Source of the DNA: a virus
DNA: 64,000 bases
Reading direction: 5' to 3' (one strand)
Virus record (IMG/VR): IMGVR_UViG_3300025010_000048
Location: 1-64,000 of that record
Under the pieces are notes generated by a model. It was not told where the DNA came from, did not search any database, and worked only from the letters and a program-made list of their open reading frames with translations. Positions 8,616 through 52,225 of this stretch are shown here, piece by piece. The first letter of the stretch is position 1, and each line of letters starts with the position of its first letter. A program made the translations under genes and the position numbers.

Positions 8616-9977
8616 CTAGCTAGGATTACAGCCATAGATAAAGCTGAAATCATCCCAACCATAAGAGAAACGTGCAATTGTCGCATACTTAGCAATTTCA
8701 GTGTCGAAGTCCTCAGTTGCCTTAAATCCAGGTTGCCTTCTCCAATACCAATTTAAGAATTGCTTCATTCTCTCGCTATCACACATGCCATATGTTAACT
8801 GTATGTTTCCATGCAGAGCAGACTATATCATCCCTTTCGGGGACGGCGCTTATGGACATTATTGTTTCCTCAGTCCTAGTCGTTGAACCTTCACCCGCCC
8901 TCGTCTCTATTGACTACATCGGGTGCTTGGCTGCTGATTTCCCATTGTTTCATCCACTAACTTTTCAAGCCATCACATTCACCGTTACCAGTCGTGTTGT
9001 GGCATAGTGGTTTTAGGGGGTTCCAGCAATTCACCGTCTTTGCAATTATATCTGTGAACATTTTTTCATAATCTTTTTCATGTCCATTGACCTTACTTCT
9101 ATGACAGTCATCGCAAAGCGAAATTAAGTTATTTTTGTCAAATATTTTAGATGGATCTTCTTTTACTGTTATTATATGAAAAAGATTGTCAACGGACTAA
9201 TTAGATTACTAATTGGTATCACATATATAATGGGTCCTAGTGTTTGAACCAAGCGTTAGCGTCTGTCAACCAAGGCCATTCAACTACATTGAACACGCCT
9301 TTCCAGACGTTTACGCCGTGGTCGGTTGTCCCAGGCTTTTCCTCAGTATCGGCAATAACCCTTGCAGGTTCAAATAATTCAGTCGGCACGATCAGAGTAT
9401 CCGGCATAACCAAGAATGGATTACCCTTATCGTCCTCCCAACGACGCATATTGTTTCTAACGGTAGTCACGTTAGCGGCAGTCAGCGCATATGTGCCGAA
9501 GTTTGAAGTTACGGCAGAACTTCCAGGTGCTTTCGGGTGCGATGCAGAACAAAGAGCAACCCCATCTGGACCGGCATAAGATGCGTTAAAAGCGTTATTA
9601 AACGGTATAGCAGCATGATACTGAATAGTTCTATATTCAACCATACGGAGATTACGGACACGCTTTTTAATCTCGCCGTATTGTTCGTCCTCAACTAACT
9701 CGCGCTCAATCTGTGTACCTTTAGAATATTTACGGTGAATATAGTTAGAAGTGAAACCTTTCCTAAAGTCCTCATAAGAAACTTTATTCCCTGTTGCTCC
9801 CCATTCTTCCATTAACCCTAAGTCACCGATGCCCTGATTAGTTTCCTGCGCTTTTGTGGAGTTTTCCACGTTATACATCAGACCAAGGAAGTCCTTTTCT
9901 TTCTTACCGGCCAAGTCAAATATCTTCCTTAGACCAGGTTCAAGTTGCTCTGCCCAATTGTCAGAAATTAACGGCAT
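8616..9977 (-). CDS. major capsid protein (Mu gpT-like/HK97 fold), spliced: exon 1 9977-9247, exon 2 8787-8616
   Basis: 731+172 nt = 903 nt, 300 aa; the join reads ...DANAWF-MCDSERMK...RFSYGWDDFSFIYGCNPS*. Confidence 0.9.
8788..9246 (-). ncRNA. group I intron (459 nt) in the major capsid gene
   Basis: P AAUUGCUGGAA, Q AAUCAGCAGCC, R GUUCAACGACUA, S GAUAUAGUC; P1 GGUUC/GGACC with U.G at the 5' splice site; terminal G. Confidence 0.93.
9040..9178 (-). pseudogene. remnant C-terminal half of an HNH homing endonuclease inside the intron
   Basis: HIITVKEDPSKIFDKNNLISLCDDCH without start codon or N-terminal half. Confidence 0.75.
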
Positions 9978-11873: not shown

Positions 11874-13874
11874 CTATACATCTTGTTGTATTAATAATTG
11901 CAGTTCTGACATCATTTGTTCTGGCGGTAGGGACATTAGGTATTCCCTAATCTCCGGAGGCAATTGAGATAAAATTTGTTCTATCTCGTTACCTTGTTGT
12001 GAAACTTCTTCCTGCTCAGGAGGTTGTTCTCCAGGAACAGAACTTCTTTTCATTGCTTCCTGCTCCATTTCCATCCGTTGCTGTTCTTCCTTCTGCTTAT
12101 TCATTCTCTCCATAATTTCGGGTATGGGAGGGAACTTGCCGTATTCCATAACATAGAAGAAAGTTTCCGGATCAATGACACTTGCTACCAATAAATCCTT
12201 AGCTATTTCCATATGATACATGCGGTCACTCGGTATTACCGATGAAACTTTACAGTAACAATCAAAGTCAGGGAAGTATTCCTCAAAATCCTTTTGGTAG
12301 GTATTGGCATCTAACATCCTGCCGTCCGGCATTATTGTTTCTCCGGTATTTAACTTTCCTACCTCATTAAAAGGCATGGTTATGCCGTTTTCTTTGTCGT
12401 AAACCTTTTTCATTTCATCAGCATTGAAGGTGTTATACTTATAACCTTCTTTGTCGTTCTTGCCATTAATCCGGTAAGTTCTTTGCTCTGTGTAAAACTT
12501 GCCGATTAGGCGGTTAGTAAATTGACCGGCATCCTCATAGGAAGAATTAATTTCCTGCTCTGCTGTCCTTAACCTTATCTTAGCTTGGGAAACTAGCTCG
12601 GCAATTGCCTTAAATGCGGTTACGCTGCCGGGAGTTCTGCCTTGACTTACATCAAAACGACCTATCATGCCCTCCATAGAGGACTGTAAACGCCCCATTT
12701 CCTGTATTAGACTGCCGGGAATAGGTTGTCCATGCTCTCGCTTAACCCCTTGAATATCGGCAACCGGGAACCACATGCCGGGGGCAGTACCACGTTCCTC
12801 AATTAACCTCTTTTGTCTAGGAGTAAGCGACCTTTCATCATACCAGGTTTGCCCAATGGCCCCGTGAATATGACCTTCAAGTATAATCTCAGCAGTCTTA
12901 TTCCTAACAATTTGCGGATTCTTAAGATAGAACGCATCGCCAAATCCCCAAACGCTATTTTCTCTTGGGTATCTCTGCCGCACAAAAAACGGAAATACCG
13001 GAGTTTCTCCGGGGTCGAAGTACATATAGTTACTGTGTCTAAGATAAACTCCTTGATGTTCTCCTGCCCATAAAATAACGTGTAAACCTATTCCCTGGTC
13101 TTGTTCTCCTGGTGCTAAAATCATCGGTTTGCCAATATACCATGTTTCAATAACGGGAACCTGTTCTTGGTTATATGAGCGACTAAAACCTTCGGTATCA
13201 AGTTGGTCAGTATCCAGCAAATCATCGTCGTGCAACCCTTGTTCTTGAACCAACTTTGCCCTATCGGGGAAGTTCTCTTGTATATACTCCATTGTGCGCC
13301 ATACGGGTTTATGGCAACGATTTCCCTCATTTATATCCTCCCGACAACGTGCATCAGGCACTAGGCATAACGGGTGCAATGCTTTCCAGCGAATATCGCC
13401 TTCCCATCTGTTCGGACCTTTGCCACCTCGCCAATTAGAGTCCCAATAGATATGCCAAATACCTGTGCCGTACAGAAAAAACCACCGAAGAAACTTAATT
13501 CTCTCGGAGGTTAGTTTGTTCTTATAGAATAAGAATTTTTTAAGGTCGGTCATAATATTAGATTTTTCTTCGTCACCCGGTTCAACGCCCTGGTCTATTA
13601 ACTCTATCTCGTTAGCAAACTCGGCTACCGTACCTTCTATTAGAGAAAAGGTAATATTCTCAACGCTGTTCGGTCTATTCTGTTGCTGTGCCTCGGTTCT
13701 TAGCGGATTACCATTCGGACCAAGTAAGTCCCAATGCCTAGAAGTATAGAGTTTATACATTTCCCGCATTTCATCGACATAAAATTGCCTTGCCGCTTTA
13801 TCATCGTCATACCAATCCATACAAATTCTAACGGCATCACTTTCTGCCTGTGAATTTCCTCTTACGTTTTCCAT
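11874..13874 (-). CDS. portal protein (P22-like podovirus type)
   Basis: 666 aa; YGTGI...W, QGR.PGSVTA..AI..L motifs; Q/E-rich C-terminal barrel. Confidence 0.88.
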   Translation of the reverse strand: MENVRGNSQAESDAVRICMDWYDDDKAARQFYVDEMREMYKLYTSRHWDLLGPNGNPLRTEAQQQNRPNSVENITFSLIEGTVAEFANEIELIDQGVEPGDEEKSNIMTDLKKFLFYKNKLTSERIKFLRWFFLYGTGIWHIYWDSNWRGGKGPNRWEGDIRWKALHPLCLVPDARCREDINEGNRCHKPVWRTMEYIQENFPDRAKLVQEQGLHDDDLLDTDQLDTEGFSRSYNQEQVPVIETWYIGKPMILAPGEQDQGIGLHVILWAGEHQGVYLRHSNYMYFDPGETPVFPFFVRQRYPRENSVWGFGDAFYLKNPQIVRNKTAEIILEGHIHGAIGQTWYDERSLTPRQKRLIEERGTAPGMWFPVADIQGVKREHGQPIPGSLIQEMGRLQSSMEGMIGRFDVSQGRTPGSVTAFKAIAELVSQAKIRLRTAEQEINSSYEDAGQFTNRLIGKFYTEQRTYRINGKNDKEGYKYNTFNADEMKKVYDKENGITMPFNEVGKLNTGETIMPDGRMLDANTYQKDFEEYFPDFDCYCKVSSVIPSDRMYHMEIAKDLLVASVIDPETFFYVMEYGKFPPIPEIMERMNKQKEEQQRMEMEQEAMKRSSVPGEQPPEQEEVSQQGNEIEQILSQLPPEIREYLMSLPPEQMMSELQLLIQQDV

Positions 13875-13893
13875 AGTTCACCACCTTTTAGGC

Positions 13894-13958
13894 ATAAAAA
13901 ATAGAGGTAGAGTATAAGACAATGCCAATAATGACACTTTCCTACACCCTACCTCTAT
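13894..13958 (-). terminator. long intrinsic terminator/attenuator directly upstream of portal
   Basis: ATAGAGGTAGGGTGTAGGA...TCTTATACTCTACCTCTAT followed by TTTTT. Confidence 0.8.
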
Positions 13959-13984
13959 CGTTCTCGATTCGAGATATTGGTTAT

Positions 13985-14422
13985 TTAGTTATCGTCTAAA
14001 TCATCACATAGTGTTGCGTAGAAGTTTTGGACTGCTTTTATTGTACGATCATTGCGCTCTGCCCGTTCTTCTGGAGTATATTGCTTCCTTGGAGGATAAG
14101 CGTCTATATGCCATTTTTGAGCATAATACCAAGCATAGAAATCATTATAACCCCATACAGTAATAGCTTTTTCGCACTCACTAAATAATCCGTTTTCTTC
14201 CCAAACATTTTCTTCCGCATAACCTGTTTCAATGTTCTTGAAGGGATAGTTACTACCCTCGTATTTAGCCTCTAAGTCTGCCTCATGCTCAGAATAGACT
14301 AAAACACTATGCCCCTCATGCTCTTTTAGGAGAGTAGGCATCATGCGGATAGTGGTTGTATCCTTGCCAATATCATAATATTTCTTGCAGTCCTCACACA
14401 CAAAAGTATATTCAGTTCCCAC
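13985..14422 (-). CDS. hypothetical CxxC...HEGH zinc-binding protein (paralog of 20260-20703)
   Basis: F.C.DCKK.Y..G and EHEGH shared by both. Confidence 0.6.
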   Translation of the reverse strand: MGTEYTFVCEDCKKYYDIGKDTTTIRMMPTLLKEHEGHSVLVYSEHEADLEAKYEGSNYPFKNIETGYAEENVWEENGLFSECEKAITVWGYNDFYAWYYAQKWHIDAYPPRKQYTPEERAERNDRTIKAVQNFYATLCDDLDDN

Positions 14423-14439
14423 AATAACACCGTCCTCGG

Positions 14440-14724
14440 TTATTTAGTTTCCTTCTCATACCTGTCAATCCAAGGTTTTAATTCTTTATGGAATTCTGAT
14501 GGCAATAAAAAATCATTCAGTACCAGTTCGCCAATAAATAAAATCTTATCTTCTGTACAGTTTTTATGTAGCCAATCATAGAATTTTACACGTTTTTCAT
14601 GTATTACTGCTTGCCTACGCATATATTCATCGCGTCTATCAAGACTTTTTGAAAAACTTTCCCTAAACTTATCAAAAGCATCAACAGTTAATTCTACTGT
14701 CTGTGTGTTCGAATGGTTTTGCAC
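14440..14724 (-). CDS. hypothetical protein
   Basis: ORF preceded by an AGGA-loop hairpin/RBS. Confidence 0.55.
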   Translation of the reverse strand: MQNHSNTQTVELTVDAFDKFRESFSKSLDRRDEYMRRQAVIHEKRVKFYDWLHKNCTEDKILFIGELVLNDFLLPSEFHKELKPWIDRYEKETK

Positions 14725-14744
14725 TATGTCACCGTCCTCGGTTA

Positions 14745-14858
14745 TTATTTCTTCTTCCCGTAACCCATACCCTTTCCCATTTCTTTCTTTTCGGACTTAG
14801 GCATCGACATACCTTTACCCATGCCCTTCATACCTTTACCGCCCTTACAACCTGCCAT
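14745..14858 (-). CDS. 37-aa Gly/Lys/Met-rich basic peptide
   Basis: MAGCKGGKGMKGMGKGMSMPKSEKKEMGKGMGYGKKK with GGAGGTG RBS; below the ORF-track cutoff. Confidence 0.6.
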   Translation of the reverse strand: MAGCKGGKGMKGMGKGMSMPKSEKKEMGKGMGYGKKK

Positions 14859-14870
14859 TGTTACCACCTC

Positions 14871-15005
14871 CTAATCTAATTTAATATCCTTAGTAGGACT
14901 TATCATAACTACCCTGCCGCCCTTTGCTTTGACGGTAAGTGTTCCCCATCCTCCAAGGTTGCGTAGTTCTAAAATGACTTTCTTTTCTGCATCAGTTAGT
15001 TGCAT
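14871..15005 (-). CDS. DUF2292/YezD-like small protein (44 aa)
   Basis: ILELRNLGGWGTLTVKAKGGRVVMISPTKDIKL fits the G...I....G.VV.I....K pattern; GGAGG RBS. Confidence 0.6.
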   Translation of the reverse strand: MQLTDAEKKVILELRNLGGWGTLTVKAKGGRVVMISPTKDIKLD

Positions 15006-15172
15006 CGTTTACCTCCATAAACCCTTTCTGCTTCTTTGCCGGAAAGGATATAACTTTCTCCTTTAACCATACTCCTATATTCAAAACTACCATTCCACTC
15101 TTGAATTTCCTCTGCCGTTGCTAATTGTATGCTTTTTATTTTAGCCACTTTTATTACCTCCGGTTATCCGTT

Positions 15173-17185
15173 TTAGTTATTGCATTCAGGCATATCACAA
15201 ATAAACATCACATGATTAATAGGTACTCTTACGGTATCGCTAAACATAAGTTCGTTAGTTGTTAAAACAACAGCATCACTAATAATATAGCAACCGTCCT
15301 TTTCCTTATATTCTCCGGTGTAGTATATTTTATATTCACCCAATAAAAACATAATTTTTATTTTTAATTTTGGATTATGACTAACAGAAATCCATTGTAT
15401 ATTATTAAGACTAAGCATTAAGTCACGTTCTCTTAATGCCTGTCTAATTGTTAATTCGCTCATTTAAGGTTCTCCTTATCTATACTTTGTTTCCTCAACA
15501 ACAAACCTATTCCCCCGCTTCCTGCCGATAACCATTATCTTAATCAACTTATCATCCGCTAAATATCCCAATTCCTTTGGGCAGATAGATAACGGTATTG
15601 ATATAGAGTTGTCAGACTCTTCTTCTGTTTCCGGTTCTTCGGCAACGTCCGGCACTTCAATAAATTCTTCATCGTTGATAGTTTCGCTTATGTGACTGTC
15701 CTTGCCTGCCTCTTTCTTACATAGTCGGCAATGAAGGAGAAACTTACTTACGCTATCGAAATCAGTTTCCGGTTTTCCGCATACCTTACACTTTCTCACG
15801 AATAAAACCCCTTTTCTTCCTCTCTTGCGTTGCGTTCCTCGGCAGTTTCTACCTGTTTTACATCGTCCTCATGCGTACCTTCGGGGTATTCAAGGGGAAT
15901 GTCAACGCCCTCTAGGGATAGGACTGCTCGCATAAGTTTAAGTTGTGTATCGACAAGAGTTTTGATTGTGTCGGCATCCACTTCGGTAGGGTCATTAATA
16001 AACGATATTTTACCAACTTCATTGCTCATGTCGGTAATGTTCAAGAAAGGGAAAGTAGCTAAAGAAACAACAACTTGATGTAAAGCATCAATCTGATCGT
16101 CAAGTACCTTTTTATATTTAAGAATATCTACCATTATAGGTTCTCCCTTCAATCAGAAAATCAACTCCATACCTAGGTACATAGTATTTTTCAAACATAT
16201 TCTTATCTTTTAACCAGATAACTTCTTCCGGTCTAGTAGGTTTTTTGTAAAAACCAACAAATTCTTCATATTCTTCTGGAGTTATACTAGAATCGTTATA
16301 TCCACACTGTATACGAGTAATTAAATAAGACCAATCATCGCAATCAATAACTGGGCCAATATTACCCGAAGTAACACGCCTAACAAATACTCTCTTTCCT
16401 AAAGATTTTTGATATTCAATTTCATCTATAACCATTTTTATGTGAGCAGGAACTAGTTCATCTACATGGTAAACCATTTTTAACTTATCAAGAGTTCTGT
16501 ACTTTCTTCCTGGTTTCCATAATGCTGTTATCATTTTTATAGCATTTTCACATCCAAGAGCAACATCCAGTACGTGAGATTGCGGCATTGATAATAAATA
16601 ATTCCTAAATTCTTGCAATGTTTTCATTTGAGTTTTCTCCTTCTGGATTATTGAATATAATCGTACTTATATCTTGTGGATTAGACATATCTATACCAAC
16701 AAAATATTGTGATATGCGATAAATAGCATCAATTAGAGTCTGCATCTTTTTCACTTTCTCTAATGCGCTATTACAATCACCGAGGTCAATTCCTCGTACT
16801 TGCTTACCTAATGGTGCTTCTCCATTAAGTTCTCCGTCAGCACCATAAAATTTTACGACCATTGTTATTTGAGAAACCTTTTCCGCATTTTCAAATACAT
16901 GATCCATTATAGGTTATCCCTTATAGAAGTATTAGATTTTTCTTCTAAACCTTCAATTTTTTGAAATGTTATTGAACTGTACTCAATCCCGATTAACTCC
17001 TGCATTTTCCAATAAACAGCCCTTGTGATTTCTTGAATTGCTTTTACTTTCTCCTGTAAATTTTTGTAATTACTTAATCTCATTCCTTTTACATATGTTT
17101 TTAATGGTACTTCTTCTCCTGTCTTATCGTCAAAGGTATAAGTAGATACCTTTGCACCTATACAAACAATACTGTCATCTTGCAT
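15173..17185 (-). CDS. run of six hypothetical genes (15173-15463, 15476-15799, 15796-16152, 16118-16627, 16605-16907, 16907-17185)
   Basis: Tightly packed co-oriented ORFs; the last two resemble each other (V.G..L......EKVK..Q....A.Y......GI). Confidence 0.6.
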
Positions 17186-17209
17186 ATTTTAAGTCCTCCC
17201 TTTTTAATG

Positions 17210-18856
17210 TTACATTCCGTAGAATCCCGGTAATCCTTCTTGTTCCTCATCGTCCTCATCTTCTGCCCATTGTTCCATTGACTGAGCATTCAACCTTCTG
17301 CCCTTATCTTGACCAGGGAGAAAGGGAATGCTGTCGTTATTCTTAAAGGCAGTAGTCATATGAATATGTACTCCGATAGCACACATTATAATTACATCAT
17401 CATGCTGCCCACCCCTTGCCGCTTCTTTTCCGTTTGGGTGTCGGACAAAATTCATCGCTTCATCAACAAAGCGTTTCCAATAACACTCGAATACTCCTTC
17501 ACGCACAACCTTTTTAATGGCATCAACGATTAACGGACGAGTCTTAGGAGTTGTATACCATCCTAGCTTCTGCCTTGTTTGGTCGCTGCGCTTATCGTAA
17601 ACTTGCGTTCTGTATATATCATAGTAAACACGTTTAAGGTGACTGATTGTAGTTAGACCATGATTATTGCCCTCCGGTACTAGCATAGGCAGACCGTAGT
17701 ATACGGCTAGTCTGTGCATATAGTCGGCTAAAACGTCCGGTTCAACGTGTCCATGATAGACAGCATCTAACCTTAATCTATGCCGGTTAACAACGCCCAC
17801 AGCATCGAAGTCGCCATGCTCTAAACCTTCGGCAACGTCAGCAGGTATTAGATATTCCGCGCCCTTCTCAGGATGGAACCATATCTCGTATTCGCCCTTT
17901 TCTTCGGGTTGCCAATAGACTTGTACCTTTGCCGGACTTGTCCATATGAGGTTTCCACGCTCGCCGGGATAGCAGTTCTTCTGCATTTCAGCTATTCTGC
18001 CGATATTAAAAGAACATTTACCGGGCATAATAAAACGCCCATATTTCCGCGCTTCTAACTCCGCCTCATCCATAGACGCTTCAAGGCGTTTCTTTTCATT
18101 TGCTGATAAATAAGGGTTATCGTTCCATTCAACCATTATCAAGAATATTTCATCGTCACGTTTTTCAATAGGTTTCGAGTCATTAAGATAGATGTCGTTA
18201 TATACCCATGTCATACCTTGTAGCGGAGTCATTGTTCCAAATAAATCACCCTCGGTATCCATAAGGCGCATCATTATTTCCGTGTATATATCCTTGGGAC
18301 TTTCTTCGTCAAGCCACGCCCAATGCTGAGATGAACCTTGAAACTTCTCTCTGCCTTGGTCGTAGGACTTAAATCCGATAATCCCACCCCCGACAAGGCG
18401 TATAGTGTCGATAATGCCTGTACTGCGGTAGGTTATCTTTTTAATCTCCCTTAATGGCAATAATCCAGGTATTCCGGTTTCAACATCACCCAATATTTTC
18501 TTTTGAGTAACGTCCCTTTGTACCTCGAAGGATACTGAACATACCCAACCACGGGTAGGTTTTCCGCCAAAACGAGTTATCAGAGGTTCGTACTTCTCTC
18601 TTAAATCATCCGGCCAATCTATAAGATAAGGGCGTATTCTCTCACCTAATGCAAGGAATACTGCCCTAATTGCGCCAGATTCCGTTTTTCCTGTACGATT
18701 CCCACCCAGTATCCAGCTATTCCTTTTATTGGATAATAGAAACTTTTCTTGCTTATCGTAGGGCCGGATAAAACGAATATGTTCTTCTTTTTGCCGCCGT
18801 TCTAGTTCATTAATAAACCGTAACGCTTCTTTTTCCTTTGCTGTTAGTTTTGCCAT
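17210..18856 (-). CDS. terL: terminase large subunit
   Basis: Walker A GGNRTGKT, Walker B WLDEE, TMTP coupling motif, nuclease ADVAEG...HDD. Confidence 0.95.
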   Translation of the reverse strand: MAKLTAKEKEALRFINELERRQKEEHIRFIRPYDKQEKFLLSNKRNSWILGGNRTGKTESGAIRAVFLALGERIRPYLIDWPDDLREKYEPLITRFGGKPTRGWVCSVSFEVQRDVTQKKILGDVETGIPGLLPLREIKKITYRSTGIIDTIRLVGGGIIGFKSYDQGREKFQGSSQHWAWLDEESPKDIYTEIMMRLMDTEGDLFGTMTPLQGMTWVYNDIYLNDSKPIEKRDDEIFLIMVEWNDNPYLSANEKKRLEASMDEAELEARKYGRFIMPGKCSFNIGRIAEMQKNCYPGERGNLIWTSPAKVQVYWQPEEKGEYEIWFHPEKGAEYLIPADVAEGLEHGDFDAVGVVNRHRLRLDAVYHGHVEPDVLADYMHRLAVYYGLPMLVPEGNNHGLTTISHLKRVYYDIYRTQVYDKRSDQTRQKLGWYTTPKTRPLIVDAIKKVVREGVFECYWKRFVDEAMNFVRHPNGKEAARGGQHDDVIIMCAIGVHIHMTTAFKNNDSIPFLPGQDKGRRLNAQSMEQWAEDEDDEEQEGLPGFYGM

Positions 18857-18871
18857 GTTGTCACCTAAACG

Positions 18872-19600
18872 CTATGCAGTAGCCAACGTACCTTCCAACT
18901 GAACCATAAACGCCGGTGGGTTAGCATTTGTGCCGTTAGTAATAGAAAACTTAACTATCTCACCTGCCGCCAATATCTTGTAGGTTGCGGATAATGCGCC
19001 TAAACTTGCCGCCGTACCGGATGCCGGAAACGCTGTTCCAGTATTGTATGTTTTGGTAACGATAGCACTTGAACCATTCTTAACCACGACAACGCAGGTA
19101 TTAGAATCGTCAATACCTGCCGGTGCGCCCTGAGATAGTACTTTAATGTCGGTTAATGTTAGTGCGTAACCAGTAGGTATTACCAGTAGTGGTCTATCTG
19201 CTATGTCTGCATCTGCTGATAAATCCTCAATTTGATAGGAGAATATTTTAGCATTAGCAGCGTTTAGTTGCGCTGCGGTTATAGTGGAACTTGCTAGTTT
19301 ATTTAACTCTGCAGCGGTTGCTGTAACCGAAGTTCCTGCAGCTGCACCTAGTTTTAAGTCTGCTACTGCCAATACATCTACGTTTTTATTGGTTCCTAAA
19401 ACGAGTGCCTTACCTGCTACCGCTGTACCGGCAACTGATGTGTCGATTAAATTAAGTTCTGCTGCCGATGCGGTTACTGCTGTACCGGATTGATATAGCA
19501 CACCTGTTGGACCTGCTACCTGTACCTCTGCACCTTCTGGACCGGCGAATAATCCTTCTTCGCCGGATGGTTTGCCGATGTGTGTATATTCTTTTGCCAT
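18872..19600 (-). CDS. putative head fibre/cement structural protein
   Basis: Repeated T.VTA.AAELN.L motif plus C-terminal beta domain. Confidence 0.55.
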   Translation of the reverse strand: MAKEYTHIGKPSGEEGLFAGPEGAEVQVAGPTGVLYQSGTAVTASAAELNLIDTSVAGTAVAGKALVLGTNKNVDVLAVADLKLGAAAGTSVTATAAELNKLASSTITAAQLNAANAKIFSYQIEDLSADADIADRPLLVIPTGYALTLTDIKVLSQGAPAGIDDSNTCVVVVKNGSSAIVTKTYNTGTAFPASGTAASLGALSATYKILAAGEIVKFSITNGTNANPPAFMVQLEGTLATA

Positions 19601-19613
19601 TGATTGTTCCTCC

Positions 19614-19949
19614 TTAGAATGTTAATTTATTATCCTTAAGTACCTGATATAATCCTGCTTCGAGTGCCGTTATTTGCCGATGTTCTAAATTAATTTCAAG
19701 ACTTTGATTAATTGCCTCAATTATCTCATGCAGAAAAGTTGATTCAATCTGACTTTGAGTTTTATTTTTATTTACTCGGATAGTATTGGTGTTTGGATTC
19801 ATGCTACCATAATTGCTTGTTTCGTTATCGTCAAGCATAATGACTTTGAAATCATGCCCAAGGATTTTAAGGCTATTTGGTATTTTAGGGCCAATCCATT
19901 CACATGCCAATCCTTCCGGAAATTTATGCTCAGAGCAATTCATGCACAT
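19614..19949 (-). CDS. zincin-like metallopeptidase-family phage protein
   Basis: STFLHEIIEAI (HExxE variant) motif. Confidence 0.55.
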   Translation of the reverse strand: MCMNCSEHKFPEGLACEWIGPKIPNSLKILGHDFKVIMLDDNETSNYGSMNPNTNTIRVNKNKTQSQIESTFLHEIIEAINQSLEINLEHRQITALEAGLYQVLKDNKLTF

Positions 19950-19976
19950 TCTTTACACCGTCCTCGGTATTTTTAT

Positions 19977-20243
19977 TTAACAGTCCCATTTATCCAGGGC
20001 TAATTTCTTCCTCGTTGGTCTGCCCTTTTCATCCTTCATAGGTCCCGGCATACCACCCATACGAGCACAGAAGGACTTTCTTCTTGCCGCTGATTTAGGT
20101 GATTTTTTAGCTTGTTCCTTAGATACGGGAGGTTTAAGATTACTGCCGGGGTTTTCTTTTTCGTAGGACTTACGACCTTTCTCTGTTAATCCTCCAGTTT
20201 TACTTTTCCCTTCTGCCCTAGTCCAAGCAGGAGTTTTAGGCAT
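19977..20243 (-). CDS. DUF6321-like basic protein
   Basis: GGLT.KGR..Y...NLKPP...RRKSFCARM.G...AL.KW.C. Confidence 0.75.
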   Translation of the reverse strand: MPKTPAWTRAEGKSKTGGLTEKGRKSYEKENPGSNLKPPVSKEQAKKSPKSAARRKSFCARMGGMPGPMKDEKGRPTRKKLALDKWDC

Positions 20244-20259
20244 ATTGTCACCACCTGTT

Positions 20260-20703
20260 TTAGTCTATAAATTTAGGTATCAATAAACCACTTTCCGTTT
20301 CCTCTACATATATATCTATATCATTTACAACATCATCAACGGTAACAGACTTAGTTATCTTTGGACTACTATCACAACTTGTATCAGACTCCATATTGAT
20401 ATACTCGTATTCGGAGAATCCTTCGCACAATAATTCATCTTGCCTACCATATACTCCATCTACATATAGATTGCCGTTACTCTCCGAACAATGATCATCT
20501 GACCATGCAAACCAATCATGTCCTTCATGTTCAATAAGACATTTATGGAAATTTTGATTCTTAGACAAACTCTTGTTTTCACCATCTAAGGCATCGTATT
20601 CTTTAATTGTTCCTACATGATCAAGCCAACTTAAATATGAACCATATCCAAGATAATAAGTCTTTTTGCAGTCAACACAGGTGAAATTTCCACTCCTACC
20701 CAT
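20260..20703 (-). CDS. hypothetical CxxC...HEGH protein
   Basis: Paralog of 13985-14422. Confidence 0.6.
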   Translation of the reverse strand: MGRSGNFTCVDCKKTYYLGYGSYLSWLDHVGTIKEYDALDGENKSLSKNQNFHKCLIEHEGHDWFAWSDDHCSESNGNLYVDGVYGRQDELLCEGFSEYEYINMESDTSCDSSPKITKSVTVDDVVNDIDIYVEETESGLLIPKFID

Positions 20704-20784
20704 ACACTACACCCCTGTTCTCAGTGGTCTCGGAATTTATAGAGAAATTTTTAAAAATTTTAGGTTGCCGGAAAAATGGTTTTT

Positions 20785-21078
20785 CTAATCTGAAATGGGG
20801 ATGGGGTGGTACTGTAATTCCGCTATCCTTAACTCTATGTCATTCTTAATAATGTTCATTGCATCATCGAATCTGCCGTTAACAATAACCTCTCTGCCGA
20901 TAGATATGTTAATATCGTACCTGTCGGATGACTGGTTCTTAGATGCAGTAACCTTAATAAAGTCAGATAGGTATAGTTCATTTGTAGGTTTCTGGGAATA
21001 TAGTTCGTTGACATACTTATCAAACGACTTCTTTATTTCGGGAGATAGTTCTTTTTGCCAGTTAGATGATGTTAGCAC
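20785..21078 (-). CDS. hypothetical protein
   Basis: GGAGGTG RBS fused to an AGAA-loop hairpin. Confidence 0.55.
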   Translation of the reverse strand: MLTSSNWQKELSPEIKKSFDKYVNELYSQKPTNELYLSDFIKVTASKNQSSDRYDINISIGREVIVNGRFDDAMNIIKNDIELRIAELQYHPIPISD

Positions 21079-21417
21079 ATTGACACCTCCGTTCTCGGTT
21101 GATGGATAATGGATGTTTTAATATGAATGATATAGATTGTTGATAAAATTTATAAATTGGTGTGATCTGTGTTGGTACTATATATACTAATGCAACCCCA
21201 CCCCCGGTACCGATTGTCTCATAGGGGGGGTGATCGCACAGGCACAGCTACAGGGCCGGCGCACAGGCCAGCACAATGGTACAATGTAGGTTAACAACCC
21301 TAGGGTTGCGACTACTACAAATAATGGTAGATTGTCTTTTTGGGGTGGACTACTGCCGGTTTTATTATTGACAGCTTCAAGAAACCCAGTAAACACAAGG
21401 CCTACAGCGTTTTAGGT

Positions 21418-21445
21418 AGTTAACATAATATTTATTATCGGTACT
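21418..21445 (-). other. dif-like XerC/XerD recombination site
   Basis: AGTACCGATAA-TAAATA-TTATGTTAACT: 11-6-11 layout with a canonical XerD arm. Confidence 0.8.
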
Positions 21446-21448
21446 TAG

Positions 21449-21841
21449 TTATTCTCCTAATACTTCCTTGGCTTTTCGGGCTAATTCTGCAGAAGTGAGT
21501 TCCAACTCCACAGGGCCGCCGTCTTTGCCGGTCAGCTGAAGTTGTTGTGTATCGCTCCAGCCGTGGTTTTTCATCCAAAAAATAGCTCCGGCAGGATTCT
21601 TGCCGGAAAACAAGCTAGACTCCACAAAACGCTCTACTTTTGCCTTTGCCTTTTTAAGAACGTGTGAAAACTCTTCTACTTCGGACCAATCAATCAGTCC
21701 TCGTCTATCCGTCCCAATCGCCAAAGCTAATCCTGTAATTGTTAAAGGTTCGCCCTTTTCTTCACACTCAGCAAAATAAGCATCTATTAAAGGTTGCATT
21801 TCTTCGCCGCTCTTATATTTTCTCGGTCTACCTCCTGGCAT
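21449..21841 (-). CDS. terS: terminase small subunit (DNA-packaging gp3-like)
   Basis: GRPRKY...YF..C......TITGLALA.G...GAIF.MKN.GW.D...TGKDGGP. Confidence 0.9.
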   Translation of the reverse strand: MPGGRPRKYKSGEEMQPLIDAYFAECEEKGEPLTITGLALAIGTDRRGLIDWSEVEEFSHVLKKAKAKVERFVESSLFSGKNPAGAIFWMKNHGWSDTQQLQLTGKDGGPVELELTSAELARKAKEVLGE

Positions 21842-22808: not shown

Positions 22809-23258
22809 TCACAAAGCAACACTTCCAAACAGCTGCACCGCAAACCTATGTATAGCACTTTTCCGCAAATTATAGATGCTACGTTCCGTGCTGTAGTTCA
22901 GTTTCTCCGCGATCTTCTCCTTGGTCAACTGGTCTATATACCACATTCTCAATACTTGTCCAAAAAGCTGACACTTATCCGTCCGCGATATCGCCTCCAA
23001 AGTCTCATCAATCTCCTTAAGCTGTTGCGCTGTCAATTCCCGATTCTCCTGCAACTCCACAATATTATAAAACAAAAAGCCGGTATTATCGTTTCTACTC
23101 CCTCTTACTCCGGTTTCGTCCAAAATAGCTGCTCGCATCTGCCGGGGACAAGTAGACATAGACAATCTCCGGATCTGCCTGTCCATATTTTCCACGGCCA
23201 ACTGCATGTCCACATAAAACTCTAAAACTTTCTCCGCCTGCTCAATATAATCTATCAT
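22809..23258 (-). CDS. ArpU/RinA-family late transcriptional activator
   Basis: Y......EKIAEKLNYS.ERSIY..R..AI..FA; upstream of terS. Confidence 0.8.
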   Translation of the reverse strand: MIDYIEQAEKVLEFYVDMQLAVENMDRQIRRLSMSTCPRQMRAAILDETGVRGSRNDNTGFLFYNIVELQENRELTAQQLKEIDETLEAISRTDKCQLFGQVLRMWYIDQLTKEKIAEKLNYSTERSIYNLRKSAIHRFAVQLFGSVAL

Positions 23259-26900: not shown

Positions 26901-27808
26901 TTTCACCTGAGCGCAGGTTATTTGTCGGCTAACTTATATTTCCATATATTTTTTGCTTGACAGGTGATGCACCAAGCAGTATAATAAGTGCATCACCCAT
27001 GCAGGAGGAAGTTATGACAATACCAAAAGACAAAATACGTATCAGCATAACCTTTCCAAAAACGCTTGCCGCACAACTAAAAAAGCAGGCGGCAGAGGAA
27101 GGGAAGGGAATTTCAGAGATTGTTATTAAAAAAATCATGCCGGGAACGGCGAGGGAGGAAAAATTATGAATTTACCGCACAAAGTAGCTAACGATAAACC
27201 TGTTTTTTCCGGATGGGAAGTGTTGGCCTTCTGCAATGTCGCCGGAAATGCACCAGCGCACCGCAGTTTTGGAAAGCGCGACACGTACCACGAGGCACGG
27301 GAGTTATTTGACTCCCTGCCCGAAGTGGTGGAATTTTAATTGAGGGAGGAAAAATAATGTTTAATAAAAATACAGCTTCAAAAAATTTAAAAACCGCCGC
27401 CAAGAATTGCGGCGTGAAAGGTGACTGGAAATGGGAACCTTGCAACGCCGGCAGATCGGTCGGCGATCTGCCGGCAAATATGACTGCAGCAGTCATACAT
27501 AAGAACGGCGAGCAATACAAAATTACCGCCGATGAACTTCGTTAGTTTTAACGGCTTGGGGTCAGCCGAAAAAACCCCGCCAGGAAATTAATTAGAGGAG
27601 GAATTGAGATGTGTTAGATAAAATAACAAGCGTAATAGACGGAATATCCACAGTCATAACTTTTGACCCACAGGATGCCCAGCATCCAATATGGTTAGAG
27701 TACCCCTTTGAGGCTAAGCTGCAAAAATGGAGCAGCGAGGGGTGTTTGCTCCGGAACGACAATATAATTATCAACAGTTTCGACCACCTAAACTACCTGG
27801 CAGAGTAG
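23906..27808 (+). CDS. early region of about 12 small hypothetical genes (e.g. 23906-24118, 24186-24401, 24645-24887, 24962-25369, 25487-25879, 26233-26559, 26628-26873, 27166-27339, 27357-27545, 27611-27808)
   Basis: Most have a strong GGAGG/GGGGG RBS; separated by structured spacers. Confidence 0.7.
24110..24158 (+). ncRNA. type I hammerhead ribozyme (core variant CUGACGG)
   Basis: CCUGC-CUGACGG-GCUG(UAGA)CAGC-GAAA-ACGGG(GAAA)CCCGU-UA-GCAGG. Confidence 0.72.
24401..24459 (+). ncRNA. type II hammerhead ribozyme with loop I/3' tail pseudoknot
   Basis: GUC-GAAA-CCGGG(GCAA)CCUGG-UC-AGCAGG(AAUGGCUA)CCUGCU-CUGAGGA-UGAC-AGCCA; UGGCU pairs with AGCCA. Confidence 0.88.
24561..24574 (+). promoter_or_regulatory. 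boxA-like antitermination element
   Basis: GGTCTTTGACAACT resembles Firmicute rrn boxA. Confidence 0.6.
26957..26997 (+). promoter_or_regulatory. consensus sigmaA promoter with inverted-repeat operator
   Basis: TTGACA-17-TATAAT; GGTGATGCAC/GTGCATCACC arms flank the -10. Confidence 0.88.
27014..27169 (+). CDS. ribbon-helix-helix regulator
   Basis: RISITFPKTL...LKK.A..EGK.ISEIV; AGGAGG RBS. Confidence 0.75.
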   Translation: MTIPKDKIRISITFPKTLAAQLKKQAAEEGKGISEIVIKKIMPGTAREEKL

Positions 27809-32519: not shown

Positions 32520-35500
32520 TGAACACCATAGACGCATATGTTAAAAAAGTTGTCGGCAAGCGTGATGTAGATGCTAACAAAGAGTGGAATTTAAACAAAA
32601 ACGACGCTCTTTATGGCAGACAATATACAGTAGTTACTGTTGAATATGTTGATATGGGCGGTGCCGGTACTACTTATTTATGGTTTAAGAAAGGCGAGGA
32701 ACCGGAGATTGAATCGAGGTATACGTTTCAACATTAGGAAGGAGGAAAACAATTGTTAAGTCTAAAACTAGCTAAACAATTAAAGGATGCAGGTCTGAAA
32801 TGGTTGCCCGAAGATGGTGACTTTTTTTCAACCGGAATAGATCAGGAATGGGATAATATCTTTGTTGTATCAGGTAGTCATAACTTAGTTCCTGAATTGG
32901 GCGGCAAGAGGTGGTTTTTTAATGGACATCTTTGTAACCGTGACGGAGGTTGTATTGCCAACTCCACCGCTTCAATGTGTATGAATATGAAGGGGATACA
33001 GTCAGATCGTTTTGAGGACGGAATAATAAATTCCGTAGAAAGATTTGTATTTGTACCGAGACTAGACCAGTTAATTTCTGAGATTGTAAAACGTGGCTAC
33101 AGGTGGTTCCCTGACATGAATTGTCTTGAGGAATCAGCAGGTAAAACTTTACTGTGGATTATTGGGAAGAAGGAAAACTAATGCGTCAAATTAAATTCAG
33201 AGGCAGAAGGGTAGATAGCGGCGAGTTTGTTTATGGTAGTTTAATATTAGCACCAAATGGTTCATATAATACTGCTTTTATTGCCATAGATGAATATACT
33301 GACAACGATTATACCTTATGTGGCAATGATGGTGAAGTTAGAATATTTTCTAAAATTTATCCCGTTATCCCTGAAACAGTAGGTCAATTCACCGGCCTTC
33401 GCGACAGCAAGAGAACCACCGAGTTTCCCGAAGGGCAGGAAATCTATGATAAAGATTTAATTTCCGATGGTTACAATAATATCGGCATAGTCGAATGGTT
33501 AGACGGAGATAACCCAGGATTTTACCTACACTGGACTAACGTAGAAACTGGCTGTTTTGACGGCATTGGGGAGTGGGGTACTGTGGTTGGCAATAAGTTT
33601 CAGCATCCCGAACTATTGGCAGGTGAAAACAATTGAAATTAGAATTAACCTTATTCGAAAAATATTACATAAAAGAATTTAAGGAGGACGATAAGGAAAA
33701 TTTTCAAGGTTGGCGTTTCATCTACTTTATTAGTAAACCATTTCGATTTAGGTGGTTTACTGATTGCGGAGATTGGTTCTTATATATTCATTGCGGTAAA
33801 AGGTATTGGCGGTTTAGTAGCGCAGGATATGTAAGCAGTAAGGAGGAAAACCAATGAAGTGGATTTTACTTCTCGCTATAACCGCTATTGTTTTCGCTGC
33901 CGGGATTGTGGTTGGTTTGAGGCGCGTTAGGAAGGGTAGGAAATAGGTGAGTAAATTTATATACGATATGATCTGTATGACTGAGGGAGAAAAACTTATT
34001 CACTATTGGTGGTTATGGCTAGGAATAATTATTGTAAGTTTCGGTAGTATTTTATGGAAAGTTATCAGAGATAAGGCAGGTGAGTAAAATAAGAAAAGAC
34101 TACTGCATGGACTGTGGCATAGAACTTATAGGAGACCAAGGACAGTACGCCCAATGTAAAACTTGTTATGATGCCATGATTTACTCGATAGAATCTAAGC
34201 GCGAGGAAATGGCGGCATTAGAGGCAAGCATGGAACGCAGAATGAGACTTAATGAGATACTGACTAATGTTTTTGCTATTTTCGTAACTATCGTTCTGGC
34301 GATTATATTTGCAATTGTATTAAATATACTGCCGGATAATAATATAGCTTTAGCTTTTAGTGGAGTTTTCATTATCTTGCTAATATATATAATGTTTTGG
34401 TTGGAGAGGTGTTGATAGTATGGAGGTTGGGCAGAAGGTTTATCTTGATGGAAATGGAACAGTTGTCGGAATACTGGAATATGAGATTAAAAGTATTGGT
34501 AGGAAATATTTTTATATTTGGCGTGAAGAAAATGAGCGCACAATAAAGAAATACAACATAGAAGGTCTTAGGGAAATTAATGACTTTAGATCTTCTGACA
34601 TATATTTTGATAGACAAAAGTTATCTGATAGTATTGAATACCGTACACTAAAAGATAAATTAGGGAGAGCATTTAATTGGAGGAATATAAGTAACCTATC
34701 TCTCCAACAACTTCGGCAGATCAATGCTATTATTGAGGGGTGATTAACATGCTATACGCCGACTGGTTAAAGTCGCTTAAACCGGGGGATAAGGTTTGCT
34801 ATATAAGGCGCAGGGACACAGTGTACACTATAGACTTTGTTAAAAAGGTGACTCCTTCTGGGATTGTGCGCCTAGAGAGTGGGTTATCGACAGATAAGGA
34901 AGGTTGCTATAAATCTTCTAATATGGGTTGCTCATTTAAAATACGTCAAATTACTCAGAAAATTTTAGATGAAATAGATCGTCATAAGGCAATAAATAGG
35001 TTAAAGGGATTCAACCTATATTCTCTCAGCAAAGAGCAACTAGAGAGGATAATGGATATTATTGAGGGAATGGAGTGATGGACTACGAAAAACTACTAAA
35101 CGAATGGGGAGAAAAGGTTAATGATTCTATTAACAGGGGCGGATTAACAGAGAAATATATATATGGAAAGGATATAGAAATATTATGAATACAAAGACGC
35201 ATTATGAGGATGGATATGAATGTTTAAATGAATTATGTGAATGTGGTGGTACTATAAGATATACTTCTTGGAATAAGAATAGTGTACTTGGAGCAATAGT
35301 ACTGTTTAGACAATGTTTTTGTTTGCAATGTGGTAAAGAAATGAAAAAATTACGTGAAACTAAAATACATACAATAGATAGTAAATATGGTATATAAAGT
35401 AATGTTATATTAACTCATTGGTTAGACAGTGAAGGTAAGTAGCTAAAGGGATTATTATTAAGGGGGTGGAGTGATGAAAACTTCGGAAGTAGTACCGTCT

Positions 35501-50314: not shown

Positions 50315-52225
50315 TTGATTAACGAATTAATAATGGGATCGCTATTTGACGGAGTTGCAATGCTCCCTTTTGCAGCAGAACTTAACGGAATTAGAGCAGT
50401 GTGGGCCAGTGAGATAGAAAAGTTCCCGATAGCGGTAAGTAAACACCATTTCCCTGACATGAAGCACTTGGGAGATATTTGTGGCATAGGATTATGTACT
50501 TACATTACACATTTTAGCGGAACTAAGTGTAATTTTTATATAAACACAGCTAAAGACATTCTGGTTAAACCAGTAGATATAATCACATTTTCAAGCCCTT
50601 GTCAAGATTTGTCAGTCGCCGGTAAAAGGGCAGGTTTGGCGGGAGAGCGTTCTGGTTTGTTTTCTGAGGCGGTAAGAATCATAAAAGAAATGAGGTTTGT
50701 CACAGATGAAATGTACCCAAAATACGCAATCTGGGAGAACGTACCAGGAGCATTTAGCTCAAACAAAGGACAAGATTTTAGAACCGTGCTTGAAGAAATC
50801 ACAGCGTCCGAAATTCCAATGCCTAAGTCTGGAAAATGGGCAAACGCCGGAATGGTCAGAGGGGATGGGTATAGTGTTGCTTGGCGAGTCTGTGATGCGC
50901 AATACTGGGGAGTCGCCCAGCGTCGTAAGAGAATCTTCCTTGTCTGCGATTTTAGAGGACAACGTGCCGGAGAAATACTTTTTGAGTGCGAAAGCGTGTC
51001 AGGGGATTTTGCGGAGAGCGGAGAAGCGAGGCAAGAAGTTGCCGGGAGTGCTGGAAATGGCATTGAGACAACAATCAGGATATTTGACATTGGAGATAGA
51101 CGCAGAGTCGCAGACGAGTCAGTAGGCGTAACACCTACACTGACAATGAAAATGGGTACGGGTGGAAATAATGTCCCCGTAATTTTAAAGCGAGATACAA
51201 TAGCCTTTAACGGCAGACAAGACCCTGTTTATGGACAAGTTACCGGGGCGCTTGATACCGATCGAGCGACACAGTGCATTGCATACCCTGAACCTGCAAA
51301 CGCTCTTCTCGCAAAAGGTAATCTGTCATATCGTGCTGATGTAGATAATTTAGTTTGTGCTGTAGATATCCGCAACCTTTACGAAACTGAGGAATTAAGT
51401 GAAACGCTGCAATCCAAGCAAACAGGTGGTTACTCACTTAACTATCAAAATCCTGTCAGGGTTCCGATTGGAGGAATTAATTATGGCAATGCCGACAAAA
51501 CCAACGCCAGAGAAATATTGTTCGCACTGTGGCGAGAAATTGGAACGGAAGCGTTTTGCAAATGGGCGGTTAGAGTCGTTGAATACTTTCAACAAAAGGG
51601 AATACTGCAACCAGAAATGTATGGCGAAGGGGTTCGAGAGCAAACCGAAACCGAGATCGGAAAACTGGGAAACGAATCATTCCAGATCGAGAAAAATTGT
51701 TCCACCGGGTCCTTGCGAAATATGCGGAAAACCGAATGCTTTAGATGTACACCACAAAGACGAGGATTGGACAAACAACGAACCAGAGAATCTTCAAAGG
51801 ATTTGTCGGAGTTGTCACAACTTAAAGCACAGGCAGAGAAAGCGTTGCGCCATTTGTGGGGAAGTAGCAAAGGGTTATGGATTATGTACAAAGCACTTAC
51901 AGAGATACAAGAAGCACGGAGATCCGATGATAGAAAGGATAAATCCGAGGAAGAAATGCAAAGTATGCGGAGAACCTGCTCACTCGAAAGAGCTTTGTGG
52001 GATGCACTATATGAGAGCGAAAAGAGCAGGGAGCCTGTAAGATATGCGGTGAGACGACTCCTACCCCTGGAATGCGAGCGACTGCAATCGATGCCGGACG
52101 GTTGGACAGATATCCCCGATGCATCCGATACAGCACGATACAAAGCAATCGGAAATTCGCTTGTGATGAATATAGCTGATTGGATATTTAGTCAGATAGT
52201 AAAGGCAGAGAAAGGAGAACTCTAA
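50315..52225 (+). CDS. C5 cytosine DNA methyltransferase with a very long variable region
   Basis: SLFDG, SPCQDLS.AG, WENVPG, Q.RKRIF, RRL.P.ECERLQ, RYKAIGNS. Confidence 0.92.
   Translation: MINELIMGSLFDGVAMLPFAAELNGIRAVWASEIEKFPIAVSKHHFPDMKHLGDICGIGLCTYITHFSGTKCNFYINTAKDILVKPVDIITFSSPCQDLSVAGKRAGLAGERSGLFSEAVRIIKEMRFVTDEMYPKYAIWENVPGAFSSNKGQDFRTVLEEITASEIPMPKSGKWANAGMVRGDGYSVAWRVCDAQYWGVAQRRKRIFLVCDFRGQRAGEILFECESVSGDFAESGEARQEVAGSAGNGIETTIRIFDIGDRRRVADESVGVTPTLTMKMGTGGNNVPVILKRDTIAFNGRQDPVYGQVTGALDTDRATQCIAYPEPANALLAKGNLSYRADVDNLVCAVDIRNLYETEELSETLQSKQTGGYSLNYQNPVRVPIGGINYGNADKTNAREILFALWREIGTEAFCKWAVRVVEYFQQKGILQPEMYGEGVREQTETEIGKLGNESFQIEKNCSTGSLRNMRKTECFRCTPQRRGLDKQRTRESSKDLSELSQLKAQAEKALRHLWGSSKGLWIMYKALTEIQEARRSDDRKDKSEEEMQSMRRTCSLERALWDALYESEKSREPVRYAVRRLLPLECERLQSMPDGWTDIPDASDTARYKAIGNSLVMNIADWIFSQIVKAEKGEL
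50697..51125 (+). CDS. alternative-frame ORF nested in the methyltransferase (putative beta-type polypeptide)
   Basis: NTGESPS...SSLSAILE..VPEKYFLSAKACQGILRRAEKRGK.LP..L..AL. Confidence 0.65.
   Translation: MSQMKCTQNTQSGRTYQEHLAQTKDKILEPCLKKSQRPKFQCLSLENGQTPEWSEGMGIVLLGESVMRNTGESPSVVRESSLSAILEDNVPEKYFLSAKACQGILRRAEKRGKKLPGVLEMALRQQSGYLTLEIDAESQTSQ
51483..52040 (+). CDS. HNH endonuclease nested out of frame in the methyltransferase
   Basis: Own GGAGG RBS; CEICG...DVHHKD....NN..ENL..ICRSCH; C-terminal C..C......GLC..H repeats. Confidence 0.88.
   Translation: MAMPTKPTPEKYCSHCGEKLERKRFANGRLESLNTFNKREYCNQKCMAKGFESKPKPRSENWETNHSRSRKIVPPGPCEICGKPNALDVHHKDEDWTNNEPENLQRICRSCHNLKHRQRKRCAICGEVAKGYGLCTKHLQRYKKHGDPMIERINPRKKCKVCGEPAHSKELCGMHYMRAKRAGSL

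Follow-up and report, generated by a model that had tools for sequence, protein, structure and literature searches.

We analysed a window of 64,000 nt (bases 1-64000 of the virus record IMGVR_UViG_3300025010_000048, which has 72,330 bp and is rated complete) for a system of small RNA hairpins, a 44-aa protein and an intrinsic terminator, situated on the minus strand between the small terminase gene (terS) and the portal gene. The protein is encoded by an open reading frame (ORF) at 14871-15005 (−), here named f0, which is the candidate trans-acting factor. At least seven small accessory genes of this interval carry a mini-hairpin on their ribosome-binding site, and a larger stem-loop of 21 nt, site E, touches the foot of the terminator in front of the portal gene. 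The comparisons show that the hairpins, f0 and the terminator exist as elements under selection, and that f0 moves together with E and the terminator, as one portable module, between unrelated genomic contexts. An earlier reading of the window (the sequence-only reading) had proposed that the small protein binds the hairpin, allows read-through into the head genes and tunes translation of the genes in between. That f0 may bind the hairpin, promote read-through of the terminator and damp translation we find plausible, without calling it probable.

The terminator (13894-13959, −) consists of a 27-bp stem with a U-run (−45.4 kcal/mol, z −8.5) and ends 20 nt before the portal start codon. One of the six hairpins of the sequence-only reading had been placed at the base of this terminator, and this was borne out. 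The copy, ATCGAGAACGAT at 13957-13968, is the inner part of site E (P1ext, 13953-13973, −), which is built of an outer helix CUC/GAG, an internal loop GA/A, an inner helix AUCG/CGAU and the loop AGAA; the lowest 7 nt of the terminator are the 3′ strand of E. Across seven relatives, nine pairs of the terminator stem display compensatory change. The GTG at 13937, within the terminator, was considered as the start of a leader micro-ORF and rejected, as in the related contig L124 a stop follows after six codons. Rfam gave no match at E ≤ 1 in 13700-21500, and in five distant loci nothing but tRNAs and one row at chance level.

Searching metagenome contigs with f0, we recovered 21 loci of the same clade and 52 distant loci, which have 37-67 % identity and a GC content of 43-61 %. 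At 50 of the 52 distant f0-like ORFs the sequence GCCGAAUCG-loop-CGAUAGGCGC, with the same core as site E, starts 10-30 nt downstream and is followed by a 13-bp GC-rich stem and a T-run. The check proposed with the sequence-only reading, co-occurrence of the motif with DUF2292 homologues, therefore came out positive for the terminator-adjacent copy (50/52 distant loci). All E matches (52/52) are on the strand of the f0 gene. The E core CGAATCGAGAACGATAG is identical at 17 of 17 positions between the window and the loci L258, L264 and L274, whose last 75 coding nucleotides of f0 agree with those of the window at 38-42 positions (8-14 of the 25 third positions). The loop of the distant copies is AAGA (25), AAAA (12), AGAA (6), AAAC (2), AGGA (1) or has five nucleotides (6). 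In the outer helix, 48 distant-family matches have GCC/GGC, 14 clade loci have CUC/GGG and the window has CUC/GAG; since pairing is kept between GCC/GGC and CUC/GAG, two outer-helix pairs have been exchanged compensatorily between the lineages. In the distant family, the 3′ strand of E shares 4 nt with the terminator foot. One of the two distant loci without E, L256, displays three tandem copies of a 15-nt repeat directly after the f0 stop codon. A 19-nt E pattern had two matches in species-representative genomes, both in GC-rich unrelated contexts without a phage protein match, and these we judged to be chance; the distant-family E pattern had no match in IMG/VR.

The surroundings of the module were annotated in six distant loci, four of which were scanned for tRNAs. 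A tRNA gene (Lys, Asn, Ala or Gln) was present in all four. Upstream, on the opposite strand, five of the six loci have a large serine recombinase (the sequence of L301 begins too late for it to be seen), five an M78 ImmA-like peptidase and five an HTH_3 repressor. The f0 gene is the first of a rightward operon, with E and the terminator behind it; in five of the six loci an HTH_3 Cro-like gene begins 16-45 nt past the T-run, and a Gp3-like directionality factor comes next in four, followed by primase-type genes. By their annotated genes, the distant loci are integrated prophage-like elements with the module at their switch. Within the clade, the order f0, cassettes, E and terminator is kept in two arrangements, with the portal gene after the module or before it (with a different large terminase, TerL). 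No promoter-like site was found in the 20 nt between the U-run and the portal start, and in the window as well as in the distant loci the terminator leaves no room for a promoter before the next gene. In both settings, transcription must pass through the terminator to reach the operon behind it. One 142-kb metagenome contig contains two differing copies of the f0 module ~73 kb apart (L235 and L253); assembly may have joined two related phages, or one host may have had two prophages.

All six hairpins listed by the sequence-only reading are present on the minus strand, at the positions given there. The type A hairpin (ACCG-AGGA-CGGU), ACCGAGGACGGT, occurs three times: at 14429-14440, 9 nt before the GTG of a 145-aa gene (13985-14422), at 14731-14742, preceding a 94-aa gene (14440-14724), and at 19957-19968, preceding a 111-aa HExxH gene (19614-19949). 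The GGAGGUG ribosome-binding site of a 97-aa gene (20785-21078) begins with the 3′ arm of the type B hairpin (CCG-AGAA-CGG), CCGAGAACGG at 21089-21098. The type C hairpin (CUG-AGAA-CAG), CTGAGAACAG at 20715-20724, abuts the ribosome-binding site of a 147-aa gene (20260-20703), and hairpins of this type also sit before unrelated genes in L125, L126 and L044. These five copies, which had been reported to overlap or abut ribosome-binding sites, are located 9-13 nt 5′ of the start codons. We identified two further copies, again on the minus strand. The first, TAAGGAGAACCTTA (UAAGG-AGAA-CCUUA, 15465-15478, fold z −3.5), holds the ribosome-binding site of a 96-aa gene (15173-15463), and its orthologue in L044 is ACGG-AGGA-CCGU. 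The second, CGGATAACCG (CGG-AUAA-CCG, 15161-15170), has an AUAA loop and abuts the GAGG ribosome-binding site of a 50-aa gene (14996-15148). As this 50-aa gene overlaps f0, the hairpin marks the start site of f0's own operon; its counterpart in L125 has the stem swapped to CCG-AUAA-CGG and stands directly before f0. The 145-aa and 147-aa genes, both on the minus strand and both preceded by hairpins, have a similar N-terminal CxxC motif (F-x-C-x-D-C-K-K-x-Y); they may be distant paralogues, and neither has a family match.

The exact 13-mer ACCGAGGACGGTG has three occurrences, and five at ≤ 2 mismatches, a count reached by none of 100 shuffles. In the whole genome we counted nine matches against a mean of 2.7 in 200 shuffles, and six stems with at least three extra pairs against a shuffle mean of 0.67 and maximum of 4. 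The count of hairpins alone is only modestly significant, because the shuffle maximum is also 9, and the case rests on strand, clustering, start position and conservation. The plus strand has no hairpin, though about half of the genes lie there, and in both complete genomes the hairpins are restricted to the interval from terS to portal. Two matches were judged to be chance, one at 65504-65515, where a start codon falls inside the match, and one at 13270-13279, which is internal to the portal gene.

A search with TerL recovered about 12 contigs with 77-96 % TerL identity, all having the same hairpins just before start codons. Eight stems surround the fixed G-AGRA-C core (CCG/CGG, CGG/CCG, CUG/CAG, UCG/CGA, AUG/CAU, AGG/CCU, GAG/CUC and GGG/CCC), and the counts of stem rows are descriptive only, because the 14 rows were chosen for pairing. 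The claim that the stems covary around a fixed core was nevertheless confirmed, by compensatory stem changes in about 20 related contigs and by enrichment over control cores. At least two extra flanking pairs were found around 47 of 202 unique contexts of the GAGRAC core, versus 3-11 per 51-194 contexts (~5-6 %) for each of six control cores; counting each distinct flank combination once, 13 of 49 were paired versus 21 of 337 for the controls. Paired flanks are concentrated near starts (41 of 64 start-proximal GAGRAC contexts versus 19 of 171 elsewhere), and the density of hairpins is 3.6 per 10 kb in clade loci versus 0.45 in 860 kb of distant TerL loci. The type A consensus tAACCGAGGACGGTG was found in 30 unique contexts before at least 12 unrelated gene families; its 13-mer is invariant across them and the spacer to the start codon varies. 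In IMG/VR, the type A 14-mer occurs in more than 118 stretches, nearly all of them lone chance matches, and two copies are found only in clade contigs. In L124, one site pairs only via a G-U wobble on the mRNA strand.

It could be argued that all this is chance, helped by the purine-rich composition of ribosome-binding sites: the most extreme of the shuffles also gave nine matches in the whole genome, and some members, for example AGGAGAACCU, amount to not much more than a Shine-Dalgarno sequence to which two pairs were added by chance. We consider this hardly credible, as it is contradicted by the conservation, the covariation, the excess over control cores and the fact that E is conserved so deeply. 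A function at the level of DNA is also improbable. The elements might serve as recombination sites of the cassettes or as packaging-recognition repeats near the terminase, which would suit their clustering around terS/TerL and at cassette junctions, or E might be an operator of an immunity region, for in the distant loci it lies between a repressor-side gene and the Cro-like gene. However, the strand bias described above is strict both for the phage hairpins and for E, the position of the hairpins is fixed relative to start codons, one site pairs only through a G-U wobble, and a loop of either 4 or 5 nt in E would be poorly tolerated by a duplex operator. Moreover, there is no recombinase nearby in the phage interval, and E of the phage is in the late region, far from any repressor.

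We took all start-proximal tetraloop hairpins without presetting the loop and compared these 61 with 1829 background hairpins. AGGA was the loop in 23 of the 61 (background 1.0 %), followed by AGAA in 7 (1.4 %), AUAA in 4 (1.3 %) and AAGA in 3 (0.4 %); the enrichment ratios overstate independence, because the contexts have common ancestors. At ribosome-binding sites, CsrA recognises GGA in the loop of a hairpin, and the predominance of AGGA loops overlapping such sites would fit a protein of this type. The hairpins could thus be bound by a host factor, CsrA-type at the GGA loops or a ProQ/Hfq-type chaperone at the 3′ end made of hairpin and terminator, or by another protein of the phage, which encodes a Phage_ProQ_C_like protein (34420-34743, +, Pfam 6.6e-13) as a second candidate RNA-binding protein. 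Such an explanation seems unlikely to us, since the AGAA, AUAA, AAGA and AAAA loops have no GGA, no match to the CsrA family was found among the window proteins scanned, and the motif is tightly linked to f0 and to no other gene.

The mini-hairpins have a stem of 3-4 bp, a closing G-C pair and an A-N-R-A loop, and their relation to the ribosome-binding site differs by type. Type A reads as a GGAGGTG ribosome-binding site with one C inserted, by which the loop is closed. The first bases of the ribosome-binding site are provided by the 3′ arm in types B and C, and in the types ACGG-AGGA-CCGU and AGG-AGAA-CCU the site is in the 5′ arm and loop. As the loop or an arm of every type contains part of the Shine-Dalgarno sequence, folding and ribosome binding are mutually exclusive. 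No promoter-like site was found at the hairpins, and their short stems are not followed by a U-run. They sit before variable genes and not before the core genes terS, TerL and portal or the neighbours of f0. Insertions and deletions of gene cassettes end exactly at the hairpin repeats: L124 is without a 451-bp cassette that is bracketed in L123 by two identical 22-nt repeats, and the same gain or loss at hairpin repeats is seen between L122 and L125 and between G000 and L126. These comparisons show that the repeated start-site hairpins are crossover points for gain and loss of gene cassettes.

The same observations feed the main rival of an f0-bound hairpin, namely that the elements act in cis only. 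The start-site hairpins would then be attenuators that mask the Shine-Dalgarno sequence or devices of translational coupling, melted by the ribosome terminating at the upstream TAA, and would persist as the 5′ ends of cassettes recombining there; E would be a part of the terminator of f0 or a stabiliser of the 3′ end. Most hairpins indeed have a TAA immediately 5′ of them, also in cases where the upstream ORF has ended before it, and the overlap with the Shine-Dalgarno sequence in every type, the position before variable genes and the cassette ends at the repeats all agree with it. We regard this explanation as possible and as likelier than the host-factor or DNA-level ones, but still on the unlikely side. 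It does not readily account for the loop and closing pair being fixed even when they are outside the Shine-Dalgarno sequence, as in types B, C and E, nor for type A being kept without decay in 30 contexts despite drifting spacers. The E core, identical across lineages with ~50 % identity of coding DNA, exceeds what an accessory of a terminator needs, and the start-site hairpins are weak on their own (−4 to −6 kcal/mol).

As to the assignment of f0, the sequence-only reading had described a 44-aa DUF2292/YezD-like gene; the ORF is present, and the family name holds only through a transitive profile and not as a direct Pfam match. f0 has no match to PF10055 (DUF2292) at E ≤ 0.01, nor at E ≤ 10, so that the gathering cut-off of 22 bits is not reached, and PF10055 was not found in a six-frame search of the whole virus record. 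A profile made from seven f0 sequences of the clade retrieved 56 proteins at E ≤ 0.001, of which 50 were scanned (five long multi-stretch proteins and one clade member were omitted). Half of these, 25, match PF10055 at E ≤ 0.01, 15 of them with at least 22 bits, and no other family was matched. Because the family profile of f0 retrieves members of PF10055, calling f0 DUF2292-like is fair as a statement of remote homology. The top ESM Atlas cluster for f0 (score 0.81) has PF10055 on 11 % of its members, which we take as a lead only. The protein structure predicted by AlphaFold2 (pLDDT 92) has a helix at residues 5-16 and a β-hairpin of two strands, 21-28 and 31-39. Literature searches for DUF2292 returned mentions only, with no functional study evident from titles and abstracts; for YezD nothing relevant was returned, and the hits for OscA were incidental. 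Directly after f0 lies a 40-aa ORF rich in Gly, Lys and Met with GKGM repeats (14745-14867, −) that belongs to no family and is kept at the same place in several relatives, in both gene arrangements.

Among 12 related loci searched, f0 was found in ten, the misses being a contig that ends inside TerL and a relative of 40 % identity. Every relative covering the interval has both f0 and the motif, and co-occurrence inside the clade therefore cannot discriminate between the explanations. A tblastn search of INPHARED found no relative of f0.

If f0 does bind the hairpin, which is a candidate interaction, its binding at E might stabilise the stem-loop at the expense of the terminator foot, or might mark the elongating polymerase. 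Once f0 has accumulated, transcription would read through into the downstream operon, here the portal and head genes, and the arrangement would work as a delay switch. At the start sites f0 would lock the Shine-Dalgarno sequence and so damp the accessory genes, including its own operon.

Several observations weigh against this mechanism. With f0 as query, Foldseek returned nothing at E ≤ 0.001 and no recognisable RNA-binding fold, and a sequence-profile search of the PDB nothing below E 0.2. Only two of the 44 residues are arginines, and the net charge is about +3. The one named DUF2292 relative that we came across is the sulfur-starvation protein OscA, through a weak NCBIfam match for P0024. 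As to the RNA, four of five start-site hairpins have fold z of −0.2 to −2.1, and these hairpins are without the outer helix and the internal loop of E. Across the 50 distant loci the inner stem of E never changes, so that covariation in E is confined to the outer helix when lineages are compared. E overlaps just 3-7 nt of the 27-bp terminator stem, and the remainder would still form a long stem with a U-rich tract behind it. Co-inheritance is partly trivial, because in most loci only 10-30 nt separate the hairpin from the gene. Finally, site E is missing from four clade loci (L221, L222, L224 and L253) in which f0, the terminator and type A hairpins are kept. In place of the 22 nt of E they have an unrelated 18-nt stretch containing a small hairpin, CCU-UAGU-AGG, and the flanking AACTAAATAACCAAT and the terminator are retained around it.

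We compared the module with known systems; it resembles several of them in parts and is a member of none. The N/nut system of phage lambda, with its boxB hairpin, provides processive antitermination by a small RNA-binding protein and delayed read-through past early terminators. As there, the f0 module has a small protein at the head of an operon, a purine-loop hairpin between promoter and terminator, and a terminator that gates the next genes, and the distant modules sit in a prophage immunity region beside repressor and Cro-like genes. In contrast to N, f0 has no match to the N family or any other Pfam family and is not arginine-rich, and its hairpin touches the terminator itself. In ribonucleic antiterminator (RAT) systems, a protein of the BglG/LicT/SacY type (also PyrR or HutP) stabilises a hairpin that overlaps the 5′ arm of a terminator. 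The hairpin of E likewise has an internal loop, and its 3′ strand is also part of the 5′ arm of the terminator, over 7 nt in the window and over 4 nt in the distant loci. However, the overlap is just 3-7 nt of a 13- or 27-bp stem, and f0 has only 44 residues. No CAT/PRD-type Pfam family was found in the 21 proteins of the interval or in 93 others scanned. The coat protein hairpin of MS2, the sites of T4 RegA and those of CsrA are cases in which a hairpin at a ribosome-binding site can be locked by a small protein, and we found no relation to them in sequence or family.

The start-site hairpins may also be compared with the start-associated sequences (SAS) of Cluster K mycobacteriophages. SAS are a 13-nt asymmetric motif in one orientation, a few nucleotides before starts, which precedes non-structural genes of unrelated families and has a Shine-Dalgarno core with complementary outer bases (PMC3203893); a paper of 2025 still calls their function unverified (PMC12699233). 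The start-site hairpins are similarly a short asymmetric repeat in a single orientation just upstream of the starts of unrelated genes. The 13-bp consensus given in PMC3203893 differs from tAACCGAGGACGGTG, and the host and phage group differ too. Unlike SAS as presented there, the hairpins here have covarying stems, are confined to the packaging interval and are linked both to a protein gene and to a terminator. PeSL of T4-type phages are described as mobile promoter-plus-terminator cassettes with a sigma-70 promoter and a terminator stem-loop, flanking variable small genes as repeated short elements at which insertions, deletions and replacements end (PMC2839356). This last property is shared by our hairpins, which, unlike PeSL as described there, are elements of 10-15 nt at ribosome-binding sites without a promoter. 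Judging by titles and abstracts, a general literature search on conserved stem-loops at phage ribosome-binding sites yielded nothing closer than a T4 review.

Regarding the genomic setting, the minus-strand late block has the order DUF1492 sigma-like activator (22809-23258), terS, small genes, TerL, about 12 small genes, the U-run hairpin and portal. The small terminase (21449-21841, −; Pfam GP3_package 7.8e-20) is the upstream limit of the hairpin-bearing interval, TerL (17210-18856, −) lies within it, and the portal gene (11874-13874, −; Pfam P22_portal 1.5e-21, PHROG 156) is the first behind the terminator. The structure of the noncoding stretch 21100-21450 is not unusual (z +0.45). TerL of the window has 548 aa, and in relatives it has 681-910 aa (L126:8390-11113; also L124, L125 and L127). 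A 907-aa form has Hint/intein and LAGLIDADG domains and therefore contains an intein with a homing endonuclease within the terminase. In the INPHARED phages, no relative of the hairpin interval was found except for one DUF6321 gene. The DUF6321 protein of the window has 88 aa (19977-20243, −), and its gene is the only part of the interval with DNA similar to deposited phages (75-81 % to Synechococcus phages over ~100 nt).

Outside the interval, a group I intron (8799-9132, −; Rfam RF00028, 61.8 bits, E 3e-13) is placed between the ORFs 8616-8786 and 9237-9977. Major-capsid domains are found in the latter, and the intron thus appears to interrupt the capsid gene. A TnpB/Cas12f-like gene with OrfB_IS605 and TNB domains is located within the phage at 28072-29202 (−), and a long perfect palindrome at 27445-27475 (centre ~27460), ~600 nt from it, is possibly an end of the element or a terminator. 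A gene with the C-terminal domain of Spo0A (52225-52551, +; 8.4e-19) makes interference with sporulation possible. This Spo0A_C gene, together with the strong GGAGG-type ribosome-binding sites, suggests that the host may be a spore-forming Firmicute.

DUF2292 is a widespread family, and the work on f0 gives one of its subfamilies a testable role. The cis partner of f0 is defined to the nucleotide, natural variants without E exist, and two independent genomic settings contain the module. Should f0 bind the hairpin, the pair would be among the smallest protein-RNA switches that control termination, placed at the lysis-lysogeny region of integrated elements. The start-site hairpins offer a second, structurally explicit example of start-associated sequences, and they show a short regulatory repeat that doubles as a junction for the shuffling of phage accessory genes. 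We tentatively suggest a broader picture, on which we would not yet lean, in which the DUF2292-like subfamily would represent new and very small regulators binding RNA hairpins. Together with the 21-nt stem-loop and the terminator, such a protein would form a portable delay switch of the early operon in serine-integrase prophage-like elements. One phage lineage would have taken this switch into its late operon, and copies of the hairpin would have spread there to the ribosome-binding sites of swappable accessory genes, so that a single 44-aa protein may control both read-through and a small translational regulon.

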